A stretch of 34,200 nt of DNA from Candidatus Sigynarchaeum calidifontis (GCA_030587475.2 JAUQYZ020000204.1:1-34200), one strand, 5' to 3'; positions 1 to 34,200 are shown, counted from the first letter of the stretch. Translations and numbers: made by a program. Notes: generated by a model from the sequence alone, not told the origin.

Positions 1-1496
1 CCGGCCATGAAGGCAAGGTTGGCAGGGAGCTGTTTCTTGGATTTCTCGACTTGTTTCGGCTTGTCGATATGTTTTGAAGCGCCAGCAGCTTTGCTCGCGC
101 GTTCCTGCTGCGCCTTGATGAAATCTGCCATGGTTCGAGTGTCCGCCCTGACCTCGCCGCGCTCGATCTGGCCTTGCAACACGGCCTGGGAATTCAATCC
201 AAGCACGGTGAAGAGGCATATCGCAAAGAATATGCACTGGAAGATCGTGCGCGCGGGCAGCGAGCCCGTTCCCGATGCCCCCAGTGATGTCATGTCGATC
301 GTGGCGTTGTAGAGCAGACCCATGAGCGATGCGAGGAACACGACGTAATAGGCGCCGGCAATGCGTGCCGCGGGCTGGTCAGAGACGTTAGGGTATGTTG
401 ACCGTACTTGCTGGGCCTTGAGGAGCAGCGTGATGGCCGCGCCGAGCCCCGCGCCGCCGATCACGAGGGATGCGGGGTTGTTGGCGAAGGCGGGGATCGC
501 CTCGTTCAGCACGAGGCAGACCACGAGCACGATCACGGTCGCCAGGATCAAGCGTTCCGAGGGTTTATCCTTGAACAAGAGGGCAAACACGACGATCCCC
601 GCTGCTGCTCCCAGGAAGTAACAGAATGCCTGCCATTGGAACATGATGGCCGGGATCTTCAAGTAGATGATGGGGGCAAGGAGGTTACTCACGGCGATCA
701 TGACCAACCACCACGCGAGCCCTGTCAGCGCGTTCCTCTGGCCAACGTCCTTGAACGCTTTCTCGAACCAGGCAAACCTTGGCAATGCCGAGCTTGCCTT
801 GCCCTCTTTCTTGGGTACTTGTGGCCCGAGGCGGGAGATGGCGAGTAGCGGCGGGGCGGCAAGGATGCATATGGCATTTATCAAGAGCAAGTAGTGGAAG
901 CCATATGGAGCGAACACGAGGTAAAGCACGCCAAGCACCGCGAGCGCGACGGCGATGCCAACCCCTGGCTTCCCGGGGGCGCTGTCGATCCGCAGCCGGG
1001 GCATCACGAGCATGGCATATGCCCCGGAGGCGAAGACCACGCCGAGGTACAGGAGCATGTGGAGAAAATCGCCACGCCACCCATCCTGGCTGAAAAAAAA
1101 CATCATGAGACTCGAAAACGCCGCAACATAGGCTATGACCGACGCCACGGATGAATCCCTCGAATTGGCGATCCCGTCCTTGAATAACTCCTTTTTCTTG
1201 CGGATTTGCATGAACATCTTGTTGATCAGCGTGAACACGAACATCGGCGCGACGATCATCAGCACGAATCCGCCGACGAAGCCGCCGTCCGTGTACGGCA
1301 TGTTAATGCCAGCGAGGCTGCAGAGGCCGAACGGCAAGCAAGCGAGCAAGTACGAGAACACGGGGAGCGCGCTGGCGAGCTCGGCGAGAATCATGAACGC
1401 TGCCGATGAAGACCCGGCTCGGCGGGCATTGCTTGGATCACCAGCGGCTTGCACTTCTGGATCCATGTCCGGGACGTTAAGGTTTAGTTCTGCCAT
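1..1496 (-). CDS. Multi-pass membrane protein, unknown function (3' end runs off the window)
   Basis: Absent from the ORF track because it has no stop inside the window. Manual translation from ATG at 1496 (MAELNLNVPDMDPEV...) stays open to base 3 (about 498 aa) with roughly 11-12 hydrophobic segments. It starts 3 nt after the stop of the 1500..2987 gene. Confidence 0.85.
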   Translation of the reverse strand, partial: MAELNLNVPDMDPEVQAAGDPSNARRAGSSSAAFMILAELASALPVFSYLLACLPFGLCSLAGINMPYTDGGFVGGFVLMIVAPMFVFTLINKMFMQIRKKKELFKDGIANSRDSSVASVIAYVAAFSSLMMFFFSQDGWRGDFLHMLLYLGVVFASGAYAMLVMPRLRIDSAPGKPGVGIAVALAVLGVLYLVFAPYGFHYLLLINAICILAAPPLLAISRLGPQVPKKEGKASSALPRFAWFEKAFKDVGQRNALTGLAWWLVMIAVSNLLAPIIYLKIPAIMFQWQAFCYFLGAAAGIVVFALLFKDKPSERLILATVIVLVVCLVLNEAIPAFANNPASLVIGGAGLGAAITLLLKAQQVRSTYPNVSDQPAARIAGAYYVVFLASLMGLLYNATIDMTSLGASGTGSLPARTIFQCIFFAICLFTVLGLNSQAVLQGQIERGEVRADTRTMADFIKAQQERASKAAGASKHIDKPKQVEKSKKQLPANLAFMA

Positions 1497-1499
1497 GTC

Positions 1500-2987
1500 T
1501 CACACGCTCCATATCTTGATGTTGGTCGTCGTGGCGTTCGCCAGGTAGAAGTTTACCTCGACTGTGATCACGCCGGCCATGTCTGCCCGTGATACCTTTT
1601 TCGAGATGAACGTGGTCGGCCTTGTCGCGTTCGACCAGAACATCGCGTCGGTACCGATGATCGAGACCCGGATCGTCGCGTTGGTGAAGTACTCGTAATC
1701 AAACCGGTTCGTGATGAGACAATCGGCGCCCGTGAAGGCGTGGCTCTCGTCTTGCCAGCTCACGTTCCCGCTGAATGTCACCCTCGGCGCGTCAGGATCC
1801 TTGCCGATCACCGCTTCGAGGCTCTCGTACGCGCGTCGCGTGCCGTTTGCGGCGAGGCTGGTGAAATTCACCATTGCGTGGTTCTTGAACGTGATGACCC
1901 GGTACCCGGCATCTTCCCGGCCGTCGTTCGTCTGCACGAATAGCGTTCTTCTCCACGGGTCGTTGGCGGATACCTTCGTGCAATTGCCGATGTTGAGCTG
2001 GTCGTCGTGGTTGTGGCCATAAAGATATGCGGTCACGTTGTACCGATCGCAGAGCTCGATGAATTCCACGTTATACTTGTCGAAATTCCTGTTGATGTCA
2101 CCGGGTTCGTCGATCTTGTCGCATTCATAGGGTGGTGCATGTCCCGCGATGATCTTGACCGGTGTCGCCGCGTGGGTGGCCATGTCTTCTTGGAGCCAGC
2201 TAAAGAGATGGTCGCGCAGCGCGTCGAGGTTCATGCCCGTGTCGATATAAGTGAAGTGGTAGTCTGGACCATAGTCGAACGTGAAATTGAAGTACCGGCA
2301 CCAGCGCTTGTACTCGTCCGTCCCGAAATAGTCGTGGTTGCCGGGGCCGGCGTACACCGGCACTTTCAAGCGCCGCGTGCAGCGATCGTGGATGAACCGG
2401 TATTCTGATCCGAGCGCAACCTCGGTGAGGTCCCCCGTGATGATGACGAATTCCGGGTTGATCAAGTTGGCCTGGTCGACCATCGCGTCGAAAAAAGCGT
2501 AGGAGTCATTCCACATGTCCTTGTAATCTTGCGAAAAGCCGACTTGCGGGTCGCTCCAGACGATGACCTTGAACTCGGGCTTGTAAGCCGCGACGACCTT
2601 GACCGCGTGGCGCTGCGCGTCAGCCATCCCGTTCACAGTGACTTCCAGGTCATACAAGGTGTCGTTGATCGTGCCGCTCGGGATATTCGCGATCGCCGTT
2701 ATAGAGTTTCCATTCGCGGATATCGATGACAGAGCCAAGGTAAAGTTGCCATAACACGACGTTATCCTTGCACTCATATCCAATGTCCCGATAATTGGTG
2801 CATTGGTGTCGATCTCGATAATAAACGGCTCGTTCGACGTGCGGATAACCGGCACGTTCCACCTGGGCCTTGCCAAAGATATCTTGTTCGTAACCCCGAG
2901 AAGCACCGCGAAGGACGCGATCATCGCGCCCGAAATGATAAGCAAGACGAGGGCTTCGGACTTCACGGGGGTCGTTTTCACAGCCAT
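1500..2987 (-). CDS. Membrane-anchored/secreted calcineurin-like metallophosphoesterase
   Basis: N-terminal TM/signal segment, then a beta-rich region. Metallophosphoesterase motifs WSDPQ, TGDL, GPGNHD, AGH and GHNH. Many N-x-S/T sequons. Confidence 0.88.
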   Translation of the reverse strand: MAVKTTPVKSEALVLLIISGAMIASFAVLLGVTNKISLARPRWNVPVIRTSNEPFIIEIDTNAPIIGTLDMSARITSCYGNFTLALSSISANGNSITAIANIPSGTINDTLYDLEVTVNGMADAQRHAVKVVAAYKPEFKVIVWSDPQVGFSQDYKDMWNDSYAFFDAMVDQANLINPEFVIITGDLTEVALGSEYRFIHDRCTRRLKVPVYAGPGNHDYFGTDEYKRWCRYFNFTFDYGPDYHFTYIDTGMNLDALRDHLFSWLQEDMATHAATPVKIIAGHAPPYECDKIDEPGDINRNFDKYNVEFIELCDRYNVTAYLYGHNHDDQLNIGNCTKVSANDPWRRTLFVQTNDGREDAGYRVITFKNHAMVNFTSLAANGTRRAYESLEAVIGKDPDAPRVTFSGNVSWQDESHAFTGADCLITNRFDYEYFTNATIRVSIIGTDAMFWSNATRPTTFISKKVSRADMAGVITVEVNFYLANATTTNIKIWSV

Positions 2988-27863: not shown

Positions 27864-27952
27864 TTTTCAATCACCCGTTAGTCATACTCGTGTCGCCGAG
27901 AAAAACATTTGCCCATCAACCTTTTTTTTGGTATCAGTCGATACTTACAGCT

Positions 27953-30900
27953 ATGGAATCAAGAACTGGCTGGTGGACGAAATATGGTTGGGATAAGCCA
28001 CGAATCAAGATAGAATTTTTACCCGCTTTGATGAATATCCCATTTATAACCATCATCCTCTACGTGCTGCTCGACAATCGTTCCTACTGGGGCATGTTCA
28101 ACGGCATCCTCGCAGGCGTGTTTCACCTCGGTAATTTGCCCTACTCGCAGATCCTCGTCGGTATGGCCATCGGCTTCGGCATATACACGGCTGCATACGG
28201 CATACCCGGTATTATCAAGCTCCGGATTCTGCATATCCCTGCCCTCAACGTCCAGCCGACGATCATGCTCGGCGTCATGGTGGTTCTCGTCGCGATCCTG
28301 TTGAACGTCAACGTGCGCGTGAACCTGGACTACTTGTTTTTCATGCTCGGTCCAGGTCCAGGCTTCGCAGTGTACGTGGGCGCGAGTCTCGGTATCTTCG
28401 TGCTGGTGATATTGCTCGTCGTAGGGGTTAAACAACTGCTCTCGCTCAAGCCCGACAGGTGGGGGTTGATCGAGGGCAAGAAGTTGCACCCGCGCGTCGC
28501 GGCCACGACGACCTTGATCTCCGCGGCCCTCGGCTTTTCGCTGATCCTCGCGATCGGCTTCTATTACCCAGTCACCACGATCTACTGGAACAACGTGATC
28601 GGAGTGCACACGCGATACGTGGACTGGAGCAGTCCTGCCATCATCATCTTGTTCGTGTTGGCCTTCGTATCCCTCGGAGCTGGCATGCTCTTCTTGATGC
28701 GAAGGATACTCCCGGAGCGCGCAAGGGTTTTCACGTCTCGTGATAATCTTCGCATCTGCATAGCAATCCTTGCAGCTGGCCAGATAGCAATGATGGTATG
28801 GTTCAGCGTGCAGTTCGAGCAGAGCACGGCGCCAGCACTGACGGGGCTGTGGATCTATCCCGCGACCACGCTTGCCCTCGTGGCGGGCGGTGGGCTCATT
28901 CCCTTGCTCGCGGCCTTGCAACGATGCCCCCCTGATACCAACGATCTCACTGCCCGTGTGCAGAACCTGGTGCAATCCCCTACGCTGCGAAAGCTTATCA
29001 AGGTGGTCGCGGTCTGTGCCGTGGTGTTCGTCCCGTTCTGGTTCGTTTTTTACCAACCTCTCGCCACCGGGCCGCCCCTCGTGGACGTTCCGTTCCAGGC
29101 CCGGCTGGTCAAGATCAATGGCGTCGACGTGCCATTCGTTGGCGAAATGGTTTACCCTGGTTTCGAGACGCAATCTAACATCACGCGTGAATACTTGAAC
29201 ATGAGCGGCGCATGGCGCATGCTCCGGCTAGGCGTGTCGAGCGTGCACACGCTGTCCCCGAGAACCCCGTCCTTCATCGAGAAGCTCACGGAAGGCCAGC
29301 ACGAGATCAATTATGACGATTCCGGGTGGGAGACCACGAACCTGCCTTCGCCTGTGTCGCAGTACGAGGACGCCGTGAAGACGTGGGGCGTGGTCTGGTA
29401 CCGCAAGACCGTCACGATCCCGTCATCTTTCGCTAACAAGACCATCTTGTTTAAATTACTCGGGGTAAACTATTTCTGCGACGTGTGGATCGACGGCGCG
29501 TATGTCGGGTACCACGAGGGCGGGTTCACGTCGTTTGCCTTCGATGTATCGGCATGGCTGGATCCAGGCGAGCATCTCTTTGCCATACGTGTCGACAATC
29601 CGGAATGGGACAAGAAAGACGTGTTTTTCTACACGATTCAGCCGAACGGTGCCGATTTCTTCAACTACGGCGGCATCGTGCGGGAGCTCTACCTCGAGGC
29701 ATCGCCCCGCGCGTCCATCTCGCGGGTCGACGTTCGACAGACCGGCTTTACCACGACCAACTTCATTAACGGCTCTGTCACGGCGGAGATCGATGTCTCG
29801 TGGAAGTGCTTGGCAGTGCCCGGGAGCACCGGGGTGCTGAACATCACCGTGTACCCGCTGGTTTTTGCCAACGAGACAGCGCTCAAGTCCCGTGAAACGC
29901 TGCGATTCGCGAACACGAGCGCCCCAGTGTTCACGATATCGTATCCCGTGTCCTTGTCCGGCGCGGCGGGGACGAATTACCAGGCGCTCAGGTGCAGCGC
30001 GACGATGTCCCAGGTCGCGTTCTGGTCGACCAAGCGGCCGGCCCTCTACGCGGTCGTGGCCAATCTCACCGCGGCGGGCTCCAGCGATGTATTCTGCACG
30101 CAAACAGGATTCCGAAATTTCACGACCGATGGCGTGGAGCTCCGGCTAAACGGCGCGCCGCTCAAGCTGGCAGGCGTCTCGGTCCACGAGCAATACCCGG
30201 CACCCACTGGCCGCAGCCTCACGGACGAGCAGCGTTTCTGGGACTTGATATGCATCAACGCCACCCGGTCGAACTGGTGGCGTGGCTCCTACCCGTTCCA
30301 TCCCATGATGTACATTTATTCCGACCGGCTCGGCATCGCGACGTGGGAGGAATCCCAGATCTTCTGGTGCAACGAGCCGGACATCATCGCCGCGATCTCG
30401 CGGGGCTTGACCGCGTCCATGTGGATCGAGATGCTCTACCGGGACTTCAACCGGCCGAGCATCCTCATGTGGAGCGCGGGGAACGAGCCATGGGCGTACG
30501 AGGCGTTCTTGTCCTACTTGCAGCAGACCAAGGCATTTCTCGATGCCCACGACCCGAACCGGATCCTTGCCTTCGCGTGCGTGAGTTCCCAGGACTGGAC
30601 GAGGTTCTTCCGCGAGACCCCGCTTCGCATCGTGACGCCAAACTGCTACGGCGGGACGTTTGAAGGCGTCCCAGGCGCGTGGTACGACGAGATCACGGCG
30701 AATCTCCAGCGTTACGGCAACAACAACCCTGGAAAACCCATCGTGAACATGGAATGGGGTTACTGGCGGGACGCGGGCGGCAACCAGTCCCGGTGCTTCC
30801 TGGAGGGCGTACGTGCATTCACGGAGAACCCGCGGGTGCAAGGATTCACGTGGTGGCTTGCCTTCGATTATTACGGCCCGAATTACCACAACTCGATGGG

Positions 30901-30991
30901 CGTGTACAACATGGCCCGAACCTGGTACGAACCTGCCACGTTCAGCGCGATGGTGGCGAATTACACGGCGTTTACCGCGGCTAACCTTTAA
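27953..30991 (+). CDS. GH2 glycoside hydrolase (beta-glucuronidase/galactosidase-like) fused to a roughly 10-TM N-terminal domain
   Basis: Motifs GVVWYRK, VGYHEGGFTSF, DFFNYGGIVR, TGFR, WSAGNE (acid/base) and NMEWG (nucleophile). The first ~370 aa are polytopic. ATG at 27953 is preferred. Confidence 0.93.
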   Translation: MESRTGWWTKYGWDKPRIKIEFLPALMNIPFITIILYVLLDNRSYWGMFNGILAGVFHLGNLPYSQILVGMAIGFGIYTAAYGIPGIIKLRILHIPALNVQPTIMLGVMVVLVAILLNVNVRVNLDYLFFMLGPGPGFAVYVGASLGIFVLVILLVVGVKQLLSLKPDRWGLIEGKKLHPRVAATTTLISAALGFSLILAIGFYYPVTTIYWNNVIGVHTRYVDWSSPAIIILFVLAFVSLGAGMLFLMRRILPERARVFTSRDNLRICIAILAAGQIAMMVWFSVQFEQSTAPALTGLWIYPATTLALVAGGGLIPLLAALQRCPPDTNDLTARVQNLVQSPTLRKLIKVVAVCAVVFVPFWFVFYQPLATGPPLVDVPFQARLVKINGVDVPFVGEMVYPGFETQSNITREYLNMSGAWRMLRLGVSSVHTLSPRTPSFIEKLTEGQHEINYDDSGWETTNLPSPVSQYEDAVKTWGVVWYRKTVTIPSSFANKTILFKLLGVNYFCDVWIDGAYVGYHEGGFTSFAFDVSAWLDPGEHLFAIRVDNPEWDKKDVFFYTIQPNGADFFNYGGIVRELYLEASPRASISRVDVRQTGFTTTNFINGSVTAEIDVSWKCLAVPGSTGVLNITVYPLVFANETALKSRETLRFANTSAPVFTISYPVSLSGAAGTNYQALRCSATMSQVAFWSTKRPALYAVVANLTAAGSSDVFCTQTGFRNFTTDGVELRLNGAPLKLAGVSVHEQYPAPTGRSLTDEQRFWDLICINATRSNWWRGSYPFHPMMYIYSDRLGIATWEESQIFWCNEPDIIAAISRGLTASMWIEMLYRDFNRPSILMWSAGNEPWAYEAFLSYLQQTKAFLDAHDPNRILAFACVSSQDWTRFFRETPLRIVTPNCYGGTFEGVPGAWYDEITANLQRYGNNNPGKPIVNMEWGYWRDAGGNQSRCFLEGVRAFTENPRVQGFTWWLAFDYYGPNYHNSMGVYNMARTWYEPATFSAMVANYTAFTAANL

Positions 30992-31756: not shown

Positions 31757-31981
31757 CTATTTTAAACGTCGGAAATGGAGCAGATACTTGTTTGACTCGA
31801 TTTGTTCGCTGGTGAAAGTGAATGGAGGTTTTTTCAGCGATTTCGGCACATTTTGGAGTTGTTCCCTCGTGGAACATAACTTCACGCTTGCTCCTGCTGG
31901 TAAGGACTGGGCCAACAATTTAAGTTGTATCATGAAATCGGTGCACGTTAAAGACGTTAGGTCTTTTATATCATCATCCAT
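31757..31981 (-). CDS. Divergent TusA/SirA-like sulfur carrier
   Basis: 74 aa. DLTSLTCTDFMIQLK...LPAGASVKL...QNVP...KYLLHFRR fits the TusA fold pattern. The Cys is retained but CPxP is altered to CTDF. Confidence 0.75.
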   Translation of the reverse strand: MDDDIKDLTSLTCTDFMIQLKLLAQSLPAGASVKLCSTREQLQNVPKSLKKPPFTFTSEQIESNKYLLHFRRLK

Positions 31982-32034
31982 GGTCCATCAAGGTTTAAAT
32001 ATTTCTCGCTCCTTTTGAAAGAGATTCTCTATAA

Positions 32035-33189
32035 TCAGAATAAAAAACTTCTCGTGATGCACGCGTGTTCCCCCCCCTTGACGAGCAGTTTTCCTAGCCG
32101 CTCCGGGGATAATTCAATCACGTTGTCCAGCGATGGCATCAGACCGATCCTTCGTTCTACCATTGATGGCTTGTAAACATAGCTATGTATAAGGGCCTCA
32201 TCGCGAATCGAGCGAAGTATTCCTGGAATGTCATATAATTGATCTTCGAGCCCATTTCGAAAATTAACCGAGACACAAAAAGAGCCATCTTCTATAAAGA
32301 TCAAGTTCGTCGGAATATCATAATTCATCGCCGCGGCCATCGCCATGGAGACTGCTCCATACGCGTGTTCTGTTCCATACGGTGAATGGGTAACGATCAC
32401 GTTAAATGCGGGCAAGGATGTAGAATCGTTGCTATCATGTCTTGAAAGGGCACACCCCGTGCTAAGGATTCCCCATGGATTCTGAAATTGTTTTATAATT
32501 TCGTTTAAATTAACAAAATCTACCTCTGGGATGGCATGGATCGATTTAGTGATACCATCATCAAAGGGCTGTGATGCATAGCCTCGTGCTGTCCCGCAGC
32601 GAGCGCAAGCGAAAATGCACGGTTTGGATGTATCCGTCGACGCGGTTTGCGCTAGCTGGTGGATCGCATCCCCGATATTTATGAACGTGGTTGGTTTCTG
32701 GTGAACATGGGCAGCATGAACGCCGTCTAAATAGAGGAACAGATCAGGGATAAACCCCGCATCACGGGCATGGGTCAAGGCATTGATCGCGTGCACAGAC
32801 GCACGATTTTGATAGGGACCATCAAGAAGCATAAATCCGAACCGTGGTTTGCCCGGAATCACCTTGCGTGGATCCGGTGAAAAAGATCTAATAACGGTCG
32901 TCCAAAACTCGTTTGATGTTAATTTTAAATATTGGATATCATTTAGCATCTGAAGCCCGTGAACGACAGCATTTAGTTCATTTGCTCTATTCTCATCGAC
33001 GACTATATTGGTCTTATCAGATTTTAATTCTGCGATGACATCGATAAGGCGTTTATCATGACTACAAGCCAGGCCAGCATCTCCTGTTAGGAATATCGTG
33101 GCATCGACTCGTGCATCAAGTGCCGATAGCATCCAAGAAAGCCTTTCCTTGGTTAAAAGGTTTGAAAAAAAGAAATATAACGAGCTCAT
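32035..33189 (-). CDS. Triple DsrE-fold fusion protein (TusB/DsrH-like + TusD/DsrE-like + TusC/DsrF-like)
   Basis: Domain 1: ATIFLTGDAGL. Domain 2: GFMLLDGPY...LFLYLDGVH...ACARCGTARG. Domain 3: VIVTHSPYGTEHAYGA...LIFIEDG...PSMVERRI. Confidence 0.82.
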   Translation of the reverse strand: MSSLYFFFSNLLTKERLSWMLSALDARVDATIFLTGDAGLACSHDKRLIDVIAELKSDKTNIVVDENRANELNAVVHGLQMLNDIQYLKLTSNEFWTTVIRSFSPDPRKVIPGKPRFGFMLLDGPYQNRASVHAINALTHARDAGFIPDLFLYLDGVHAAHVHQKPTTFINIGDAIHQLAQTASTDTSKPCIFACARCGTARGYASQPFDDGITKSIHAIPEVDFVNLNEIIKQFQNPWGILSTGCALSRHDSNDSTSLPAFNVIVTHSPYGTEHAYGAVSMAMAAAMNYDIPTNLIFIEDGSFCVSVNFRNGLEDQLYDIPGILRSIRDEALIHSYVYKPSMVERRIGLMPSLDNVIELSPERLGKLLVKGGEHACITRSFLF

Positions 33190-33203
33190 CTGCCATCAAG
33201 GCT

Positions 33204-33431
33204 TTATTTTTTTACTATGGTGAATCTCCAGACGCCGGGTTCCACCAGTTCCCTTTCGTATTTATGACCTTCGCCTTTCAAGAACGCGGGGATGTTTTCC
33301 GTCGCAGCGGGTGGGTGGTCGCATTTAACGATGAGCTTGTCACCCGACTGGAGTTTTTGCAATTCCTTGCGCACGAAGAGGACGCAATACGGGCACACTT
33401 CTCCAGTTATGTCGAGGTTTTTTTCTGTCAT
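33204..33431 (-). CDS. TusA/YedF-family sulfurtransferase with a CPYC motif
   Basis: NLDITGEVCPYCVLFVRKELQKLQSGDKLIVKCDHPPAATENIP...WRFTIVK is a TusA-family sequence. Confidence 0.92.
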   Translation of the reverse strand: MTEKNLDITGEVCPYCVLFVRKELQKLQSGDKLIVKCDHPPAATENIPAFLKGEGHKYERELVEPGVWRFTIVKK

Positions 33432-33441
33432 TGTGAATCCC

Positions 33442-33969
33442 TCACCACAAGAAGATCGTGTTGAGCCACGTTTTCACGACAACCAAGATGAATGCATGGT
33501 AGATAATCGCTCCCACGCACAACCCGAGGAAGAAAAACAGCGACTTCAAGTTACCCTCGCTGCCCATGACACATTGCCGGAGGGGGCAACCGCCGAGCAG
33601 CACCCCGATGAAACCCATGCCGAATCCTCCGATAATCGCGAGGAATATCCACGCGCCGAGTTTAACGCCTGGTATCGAGCCCGGGATCGGCGTGAATGGG
33701 TTCGTTGTCTGCGAAGCAGCCCAATAGAACTTGGGGAATGCGGGCGAGAGTATCATCGAGAAGAACCAGTAACTGAGGAGCGCCGAGGCGATCAATGCCA
33801 TGTATCCGAAGAAAAGCCTCGTTTGCTTGAAAAGAAATAGATCCCGGAACCCACCTATCGAACAAAAGCCCGAACGCTGTGCCAGGTATCCGACCAGAAA
33901 GCCGAGCCCCAACGTGGCAAACGGAATTATCCACAGGGCAATATCCGCCGTTAATATACCTGTTGCCAT
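33442..33969 (-). CDS. YeeE/YedE-family sulfur/selenium transporter, C-terminal half
   Basis: Motifs GFLVGYLAQRSGFCSIGGFRDLFLF and LLGGCPLRQCVMGSEGN. Confidence 0.9.
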   Translation of the reverse strand: MATGILTADIALWIIPFATLGLGFLVGYLAQRSGFCSIGGFRDLFLFKQTRLFFGYMALIASALLSYWFFSMILSPAFPKFYWAASQTTNPFTPIPGSIPGVKLGAWIFLAIIGGFGMGFIGVLLGGCPLRQCVMGSEGNLKSLFFFLGLCVGAIIYHAFILVVVKTWLNTIFLW

Positions 33970-33970
33970 T

Positions 33971-34200
33971 TCACACCGACCTCCTTTTCATGCGGGCCAT
34001 GATGACTCCCAATCCCGCGACCACGCCGCCAACAATAGACAGGATTCCGATCAGCGCTGTAAGGTCGCCGTACCCGAATCTCAAGGCAGCCCGGTACGGG
34101 CAACCGCCGAGAAACAAGGCAAAAATGATCACGGCAACGCCACCCCCGAAATACAACAAGTATACCCCGATCGAGCTCTTCTTGATCTTGAATTCCTTGT
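33971..34200 (-). CDS. YeeE/YedE-family transporter, N-terminal half (5' end outside the window)
   Basis: The frame is open to the window edge: KEFKIKKSSIGVYLLYFGGGVAVIIFALFLGGCPYRAALRFGYGDLTALIG. It stops 1 nt before the next ATG. Confidence 0.85.
   Translation of the reverse strand, partial: KEFKIKKSSIGVYLLYFGGGVAVIIFALFLGGCPYRAALRFGYGDLTALIGILSIVGGVVAGLGVIMARMKRRSV

Follow-up and report, generated by a model that had tools for sequence, protein, structure and literature searches.

Known membrane-TusA-DsrE systems and the archaeal cassette

The subject of this analysis is a gene cassette at the right end of a 34,200-nucleotide contig of the Asgard archaeon Candidatus Sigynarchaeum calidifontis, in which five minus-strand open reading frames (ORFs) encode a YedE-type membrane protein split into two halves, two TusA-like proteins (TusA1 and TusA2) and a single-chain DsrH-DsrE-DsrF protein. 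The closest published system is the bacterial yeeE-tusA-dsrEFH type II (YTD) cluster, whose components transfer sulfur in vitro from TusA to DsrEFH and on to DsrC (PMC13293266), followed by bacterial YedE and its partner YedF, which joins a TusA domain to a DsrE-like domain with a CGxC motif (PMC5322559). In archaea YedE is split and YedF has been reported absent (PMC5322559), and in M. maripaludis selenium starvation raises the expression of a split yedE and of a TusA/TusD pair 20- to 40-fold (PMC11097638). A DsrE-like selenoprotein with a UxxC motif has been described (PMC13188914), and no specific selenium transporter or delivery route to the selenophosphate synthetase SelD is known in any organism (PMC11097638, PMC13188914). 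The window, i.e. the whole stretch of DNA analysed, is the entire contig C29 of a metagenome-assembled genome (MAG), G000 (5.0 Mb, 89% complete, 5% contamination), and carries the following parts of the cassette.

33971-34198, minus strand, open at the contig end at 34200: 3' portion of the gene for the YedE N-half, comprising its final 75 codons and stop (ORF, TIGR04112)
33442-33969, minus strand: YedE C-half, 175 residues (Sulf_transp, TIGR04112)
33204-33431, minus strand: TusA1, 75 residues (PF01206)
32035-33189, minus strand: single-chain DsrH-DsrE-DsrF protein, 384 residues (PF02635 DsrE, predicted fold)
32596-32607, minus strand: codons of C195-A-R-C198, where the fused protein is predicted to bind sulfur or selenium (conservation, DsrE alignment)
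31757-31981, minus strand: TusA2, 74 residues, a divergent TusA-like protein (conserved ORF, profile-profile alignment)

Like the YTD cluster as described in PMC13293266, the archaeal cassette brings together in one syntenic operon a YeeE/YedE-family membrane protein, TusA and three DsrE-fold units, with a functional cysteine at the site equivalent to DsrE Cys78 and a proposed flow from the membrane through TusA to a DsrEFH-like unit. The two differ in that the archaeal YedE is split into two genes and is seleno-YedE-like, the DsrE-fold units lie on one chain in the order H-E-F, the active cysteine sits in CxRC, and the archaeal operon additionally encodes another TusA-like protein and a protein with a CxEC motif. 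Moreover, G000 has neither DsrA nor DsrC, and selD is a recurrent neighbour of the cassette in Asgard genomes; all genomes concerned are MAGs, so that every absence is judged from an incomplete assembly. No bacterial type II sequence was found among the 78 matches of an exhaustive search with the fused protein, and the organisms given for 10 short matches of that search were archaeal wherever named.

The likeness to YedE/YedF lies in a YedE-type membrane protein, a TusA domain and a DsrE-like CxxC domain that are linked genomically to SelD (PMC5322559). YedF, however, is a single protein of two domains, whereas here TusA and the triple DsrE-fold protein are encoded by separate genes, the YedE halves and TusA1 stay below the TIGR04112 and TIGR03527 cut-offs, and the cassette also occurs without SelD. 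TsuA/TsuB belongs to the same membrane family, has cysteines at equivalent channel positions and requires an adjacent TusA-like partner for uptake (PMC11582611), yet in sequence the two are very distantly related (about 24 bits on NF041049, E-value 0.13 against the PDB entry), TsuA is one chain of nine helices rather than two chains of about four each, and TsuAB has no DsrE-type partner. The second and third domains of the fused protein share the fold of TusBCD/DsrEFH (2d1p, 2hy5) and YchN (1jx7), with Z scores of 14.7-16.0, and YchN carries CKTC at the position of the CxRC motif; unlike TusBCD/DsrEFH, the archaeal protein is one polypeptide and not three subunits of an alpha2-beta2-gamma2 hexamer, and G000 offers no TusE/DsrC acceptor. 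Unfused archaeal DsrH/E/F trios, for their part, consist of three separate genes without YedE.

The split archaeal YedE, the association of YedE, YedF and SelD and the YeeE-TusA-DsrEFH module are thus previously known, and the rating of the operon in the original prediction as the best candidate for an undescribed system is weakened accordingly, as both the split YedE and the link of YedE/YedF to selenium are already in print (PMC5322559). In the open-access papers and preprints searched, including a study of the Asgard selenoproteome (PMC11227280), we found no report of the single-chain H-E-F fusion with CxRC and its obligatory TusA-like partner, of the CxEC protein, of the confinement to Asgard archaea and Methanomicrobiales or of a direct linkage to a SelD that contains selenocysteine (Sec). 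The bacterial YeeE-TusA-DsrEFH design also exists in archaea, fused and extended, among organisms that lack dissimilatory sulfur metabolism, and the cassette supplies the TusA and DsrE-like components that were thought to be missing from archaea, given the absence of YedF.

Layout and proteins of the cassette

The five ORFs are separated by gaps of 1, 10, 14 and 53 nucleotides. The original prediction had described this arrangement, with a cysteine at the expected site of each product, and both points agree with our data: the ORF listing returns the same co-oriented genes and gaps, and CP[YF]C in TusA1, CxRC in the fused protein and LTCT in TusA2 are conserved across relatives. Its assignments of a split YedE, TusA and a single-chain protein also stand, with the correction that the order of domains is DsrH-DsrE-DsrF (TusB-D-C). 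The layout needed amending, as the contig ends within the first gene and the genes of the CxEC protein and of a double-cubane-cluster reductase lie beyond the window. The last 48 bases of the contig (34153-34200) recur at the start of contig C96 (positions 1-48 of locus L003) with one mismatch, Lys/Thr in the protein; since this 48-bp overlap differs at one base, it was probably a strain variant that split the assembly within the YedE N-half gene. The gene resumes on C96 (L003 2 to about 560, minus strand), and joining the two contigs gives a product of 186 residues that is identical to the one encoded in three sister assemblies, where no contig break interrupts the region.

Each YedE half has about four hydrophobic helices and keeps a cysteine after the first helix as well as a GGC motif. 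The N-half motifs are GFCVACHTRD and GGCPYRA, of which GFC64 and GGC144 correspond to channel cysteines; in the C-half, Cys36 (GFCSIGG) aligns with Cys22 of S. thermophila YeeE (PDB 6leo) and Cys128 (GGCPLRQ) with the GGC of Cys91/Cys293 of the same structure. On the seleno_YedE model TIGR04112 the N-half scores 66.7 bits over model positions 3-133 and the C-half 77.3 bits over positions 187-311, both below the 200-bit cut-off of a model made for unsplit proteins. As a control, the selenium user M. jannaschii, whose YedE is expected to be split as archaeal YedE is (PMC5322559), also matches TIGR04112 and yet stays below the cut-off. The TsuA model NF041049, with a cut-off of 645, gives 23.8 and 24.2 bits for the two halves. 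The general family model PF04143 (Sulf_transp, cut-off 27) is matched by the C-half at 32.3 bits and by the truncated piece of the N-half at 25.1 bits, and in sister assemblies a precomputed PF04143 match covers both full-length halves. A search of the G000 genome revealed no second YedE locus.

TusA1 belongs to the TusA family, scoring 68.1 bits on PF01206 against a cut-off of 28.6, and within its CP[YF]C motif Cys13 and Pro14 never vary and Cys16 is conserved to at least 90%. It falls short of the models for particular subtypes, with 36 bits on TsuB/YeeD (NF041048, cut-off 147.5), 32.9 on YedF (NF008242, cut-off 79) and 24.7 on the long YedF model TIGR03527 (cut-off 110). The window copy of TusA2 has no Pfam or NCBIfam match, and the TusA2 profile has no sequence match in the PDB. 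Alignment of the TusA2 and TusA1 profiles, however, gave a probability of 79% and an E-value of 1.6e-5 (hhalign) over their whole length, the cysteines matching in position, and the TusA2 orthologue of locus L014 carries a weak precomputed TusA match. TusA2 is characterized by an invariant T-C-T (Cys13) within LTCT[ND][LF]MI.LK, the TCT replacing CP, and though conserved it was missed by the gene callers in sister assemblies.

The fused protein consists of a DsrH-like domain (residues 1-105), a DsrE/TusD/YchN-like domain (114-244) and a DsrE/DsrF-like domain (258-384), and its AlphaFold2 model is confident (predicted local distance difference test score, pLDDT, 90.2; predicted template modelling score 0.92). 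PF02635 matches two stretches with 44.5 bits against a cut-off of 22.7, and all 40 family members examined match it. Residues 114-244 superpose on 1jx7 (YchN), 2hy5_A (DsrE) and 2d1p_A (TusD) with Z scores of 15.6-16.0, and residues 258-384 on the Sulfolobus DsrE/DsrF-like protein 3mc3 with a Z score of 14.7. The basis for the DsrH-like domain is weaker: Foldseek matched 2hy5_C with a probability of 1.00 and a target-normalised template modelling score of 0.78, the aligned domain not being reported, and Pfam DsrH matches 5/40 family members (best E-value 8.5e-4), the window copy not among them. The protein is a single 384-residue chain of three domains in place of the three separate subunits of DsrEFH/TusBCD, and it scores far below the TusD (TIGR03012, 24.0 bits, cut-off 89.25) and TusC (TIGR03010, 19.7 bits, cut-off 94.15) models. 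In domain 2, in the stretch C195-A-R-C198...R202-G-Y, C195, R197 and C198 are at least 90% conserved and R202, G203 and Y204 are invariant; in an alignment of family profiles C195 falls on the catalytic Cys78 of A. vinosum DsrE, with a shared R-G after it.

The closest sequence relatives of the fused protein are unfused DsrH/E/F trios with the same C[SAR]RC motif in Jordarchaeia, Methanosarcina and Methanothrix. Since these unfused proteins share the motif and the Jordarchaeales genes follow the order H-E-F, our data suggest that the single chain arose by fusion of an archaeal DsrH/DsrE/DsrF trio. The Jordarchaeales trio (L076, 7198-8729) lies beside an ArsR gene, and a trio of Methanosarcina (L085, 7152-11108) is accompanied by ArsR-type regulators, one of them Fe-S-bearing, a low-molecular-weight phosphatase/ArsC-like gene and an ArsP-family permease; such ArsR, ArsC and ArsP neighbours hint at a metalloid or redox-stress role for the CxRC-type DsrE subfamily.

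Distribution, synteny and upstream neighbours

An exhaustive search of 1.84 billion representative proteins with the fused protein as query found 78 relatives, about 50 of them full-length, and revealed a family of which a word-index homology search had returned just 3 members. Among species-representative genomes, full-length copies are present only in Asgard archaea (Promethearchaeota/Loki, Hermod- and Odin-labelled MAGs, Harpocratesius) and in Methanomicrobiales (Methanolinea, Methanoregula and other Methanoregulaceae). Some 20 of 400 Asgard genomes have a full-length copy, and all 20 belong to the order of G000.

Synteny was assessed by scanning 80 loci with hidden Markov models built from three loci, the denominators being those loci with enough flank. 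Both YedE halves lie upstream of the fusion in 50/57 loci (Asgard 14/16, Methanomicrobiales 36/41) and TusA2 lies downstream of it in 54/61 (16/19 and 38/42, respectively). TusA1 is found at 14/16 Asgard and 10/41 Methanomicrobiales loci, and the CxEC protein at 12/19 and 5/40. As this synteny persists at fused-protein identities of 25-36%, we conclude that selection maintains the gene order, and the conservation of the neighbourhood across distant genomes, which the original prediction had put forward as a check, is strong.

A second type of cassette, Methanoregula-like, is seen in metagenome contigs L008-L011 and in L041, L064, L068 and L073, where the fused DsrHEF gene occurs without YedE beside fwd and moeA. 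Its other parts are a MOT1/SulP-like transporter or a coiled-coil protein of 190 residues, a small siroheme sulfite-reductase-like protein and a TusA in which the canonical cysteine is replaced (GPYC). In two further metagenome contigs (L012, L013) relatives at 36-40% identity are encoded by the fused gene alone, with no YedE or TusA; L013 has glycoside hydrolase family 20 and family 2, coenzyme A ligase and acetyltransferase neighbours in common with the G000 locus.

Upstream of the window the operon comprises the double-cubane reductase and the CxEC protein, followed by a divergent Mop/TOBE gene, with the following coordinates in L003 (contig C96).

795-1184, minus strand: CxEC protein, 129 residues, with an invariant CxEC motif
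1223-2536, minus strand: double-cubane-cluster anaerobic reductase (NF040772, 451 bits, cut-off 350)
537-746, plus strand: Mop/TOBE (molbindin-type) gene, 69 residues, divergent from YedE-N (TIGR00638, 49 bits, cut-off 55)

The CxEC family comprises proteins of 114-145 residues with an invariant C-x-E-C, orthologues including those at L014 6807-7172 and L022 3481-3837. In most Asgard loci the gene follows TusA2, whereas in G000 it is positioned upstream, following the double-cubane reductase. Comparison with Pfam, NCBIfam and PDB sequences gave no match for this protein; its model shows a confident alpha/beta fold (pLDDT 90.6) for which no convincing fold match was obtained, the best being the C-terminal subdomain of a sulfatase with a Z score of 6.7.

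The double-cubane reductase adjoins the cassette in G000, L007 and the Methanoregula loci L041 and L068, i.e. in 4/64 loci, and no activase gene lies beside the G000 copy. Its family is reportedly almost confined to genomes with SelD (955/970), the exceptions being mostly methanogens, and Haft and Gwadz raise the possibility of a double cubane that contains selenium (preprint 10.1101/2022.07.06.499078). The Mop gene is kept in L007, a locus at 53% identity, and in L107 the same position is occupied by selD.

A proposed chalcogen relay and its possible end users

In six Asgard loci (L014, L030, L031, L036, L042, L067) a selD gene with an in-frame TGA (HGUSCK motif) directly follows the cassette in the same direction, and in L107, from a genome of G000's own family, the sole selD of that genome is placed divergently beside YedE-N. 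Two different juxtapositions of selD and cassette, one downstream and co-directional and the other divergent, thus exist in Asgard genomes. G000 encodes a Sec-containing SelD on contig C31 (NF010705, 318 bits) and SepSecS on C88 (473 bits), and neither DsrC/TusE (PF04358) nor dsrA was found in its 89% complete assembly. The final acceptor, which the original prediction left open after seeing no TusE/DsrC in the visible part, can now be addressed, as no DsrC/TusE turned up in the 89% complete genome and SelD emerges as a candidate whose Sec-encoding gene adjoins the cassette in relatives. Many genomes of family f4, the largest in the order, have two SelD matches, in agreement with a published remark that two selD genes are frequent in Loki and Thor species.

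We propose that the cassette imports a chalcogen, sulfur or selenium, and passes it along a relay of cysteines, here probably serving SelD, a reading that in our judgement is about evenly poised between being right and wrong. What is transported and in which direction, how it passes from protein to protein and which acceptor receives it we infer as follows. Together the YedE halves, each of which keeps its channel-lining cysteines, would make up a heterodimeric, pseudo-symmetric YeeE/YedE-type channel, through which selenium or sulfur in reduced or partly reduced form would cross the membrane. By analogy with TsuB/YeeD, which serves TsuA/YeeE, TusA1 with its CPYC motif would take the cargo on the cytoplasmic side, and the cargo may travel as a persulfide or perselenide, or else bridging the two cysteines of a CxxC pair as S-Se-S. 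From TusA1 it would pass to C195xRC198 of the fused protein, from there to the one cysteine of TusA2, and probably on to the CxEC protein; gene order and the DsrEFH precedent suggest this order. In this Asgard archaeon the end user would most likely be the Sec-containing SelD, given the two independent selD juxtapositions in Asgard genomes, and the cassette would then be a selenium supply line for selenocysteine synthesis. In methanogens without SelD, sulfur would have to be the cargo of the same core, with the sulfite-reductase-like enzyme perhaps receiving or donating it.

A narrower version is that the split YedE, TusA1, DsrHEF, TusA2, the CxEC protein and Sec-SelD form a dedicated selenium pathway in which selenium is held as S-Se-S adducts; this we consider tentative and rather doubtful. 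If this holds, it would define for the first time, in any organism, how selenium gets from the exterior of the cell to selenophosphate synthetase, and the occurrence of the cassette and the double-cubane reductase in methanogens without SelD would hint either at a SelD-independent use of selenium or at a sulfur-carrying sister function.

Several observations weigh against a role in selenium supply. The seleno_YedE family is defined by its restriction to genomes with SelD, and yet Methanoregulaceae without SelD carry the same split YedE, with C-halves 50-68% identical. None of the five cassette-bearing Methanoregulaceae genomes tested has SelD, their best match to the AIRS family being HypE (416 bits), and selD is near the cassette in 0/37 Methanomicrobiales loci. 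Since these methanogens carry the same core, the cassette is not selenium-specific, and from the uptake and relay reading of the original prediction we retain a conserved operon of uptake and carrier genes in Asgard archaea and drop selenium specificity. In Methanoregula the conserved neighbour is the small siroheme sulfite-reductase-like gene, which points to sulfur, and the nearest characterised systems of membrane protein, TusA and DsrEFH carry sulfur as well (PMC13293266, PMC11582611). An M. maripaludis strain deleted for yedE had no clear selenium phenotype (PMC11097638). In G000 itself selD lies on another contig than the cassette, among unrelated neighbours. Co-occurrence with selD, another check proposed in the original prediction, adds nothing: the order that holds all full-length Asgard copies has SelD in about 90% of its genomes, and 18 of the 20 carriers have it, so that with SelD nearly universal the overlap is uninformative.

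A possible, if somewhat doubtful, alternative is that the cassette handles sulfur only, importing thiosulfate, polysulfide or sulfane sulfur and relaying persulfide to Fe-S clusters, thiolated cofactors or tRNA, or molybdopterin, the adjacency of selD in some Asgard genomes being historical or due to a shared regulator. The SelD-less Methanoregulaceae fit this explanation, as do the Methanoregula sulfite-reductase-like gene and, in one variant, the MOT1/SulP-like transporter that stand beside TusA1 and the fusion, the alignment of C195 with the catalytic Cys78 of DsrE, and the sulfur cargo of the characterised relatives TsuA/TsuB, SoxT and the YTD cluster with DsrEFH type II (PMC11582611, PMC13293266). 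It does not account for selD being juxtaposed in two different arrangements, nor for the YedE halves scoring higher on seleno_YedE than on TsuA; the selenium-linked double-cubane reductase adjoins the cassette in G000, where no DsrC/TusE is present to receive sulfur, and the paired cysteines (CPYC, CxRC, CxEC) are not what plain persulfide carriers usually have and may be better suited to S-Se-S. A dissimilatory sulfur-oxidation feeder as in YTD, running from YeeE through TusA, DsrEFH and DsrC to DsrAB, would employ the same three parts, i.e. a YeeE/YedE channel, TusA and three DsrE-fold units (PMC13293266), and yet it is the least probable of all the explanations and in our view very improbable, because without DsrC/TusE and DsrA that pathway cannot run in G000 and because the hosts are fermentative Asgard archaea and methanogens. 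For the same lack of TusE/DsrC we rejected a Tus-type role in tRNA thiolation, and for the lack of TusE/DsrC or DsrA a Dsr-type dissimilatory role.

Two other explanations are unlikely. One is that the YedE pair exports or buffers an excess of selenium, sulfur or a metalloid, with the cysteine proteins sequestering it or signalling to a regulator. YedE was indeed considered a possible selenium exporter by Lin et al. (PMC5322559), SoxT1B acts in signalling (PMC11582611), and unfused CxRC-type DsrH/E/F proteins of Methanosarcina and Jordarchaeia are encoded beside ArsR-type regulators, an ArsC-like phosphatase and an ArsP permease; no regulator gene, however, is conserved in the cassette of Asgard archaea or Methanoregulaceae, and adjacency to the biosynthetic SelD suits supply better than removal. 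The other, which we rate marginally lower still, is service to a cofactor, whereby sulfur or selenium would be delivered for the bridging atom of the double-cubane [8Fe-9S] cluster or for the sulfido or dithiolene sulfur of Mo/W-pterin enzymes. The neighbouring double-cubane reductase in G000, L007 and the two Methanoregula loci, the possible selenium-containing double cubane considered by Haft and Gwadz, the molybdate-binding-type Mop/TOBE gene divergent from YedE-N in G000 and L007, and moeA, fwd genes and a MoCF_biosynth gene near Methanoregula and Loki loci would all be in line with such a service, but these neighbours occur in a minority of loci and are lineage-specific.

Returning to the proposed chalcogen relay, the cassette unites a putative channel and four cysteine carriers, and in relatives SelD, in one transcription unit, and it provides a short list of soluble candidates for the transfer of selenium versus sulfur. 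The copies in methanogens without SelD could serve as a built-in control for what sets the specificity for sulfur or selenium. A gene about 4 kb from the cassette in the Methanolinea locus L047, which had been taken as a SelD candidate, proved to be HypE (416 bits).

Beyond the cassette, a nitroreductase gene converges on the TusA2 ORF. Positions 27890-30991 (plus strand) encode a protein of 1033 residues with a hydrophobic multi-helix N-terminal half and a glycoside hydrolase family 2-like C-terminal half, an unusual membrane-anchored member of that family that is also conserved in sister assemblies.

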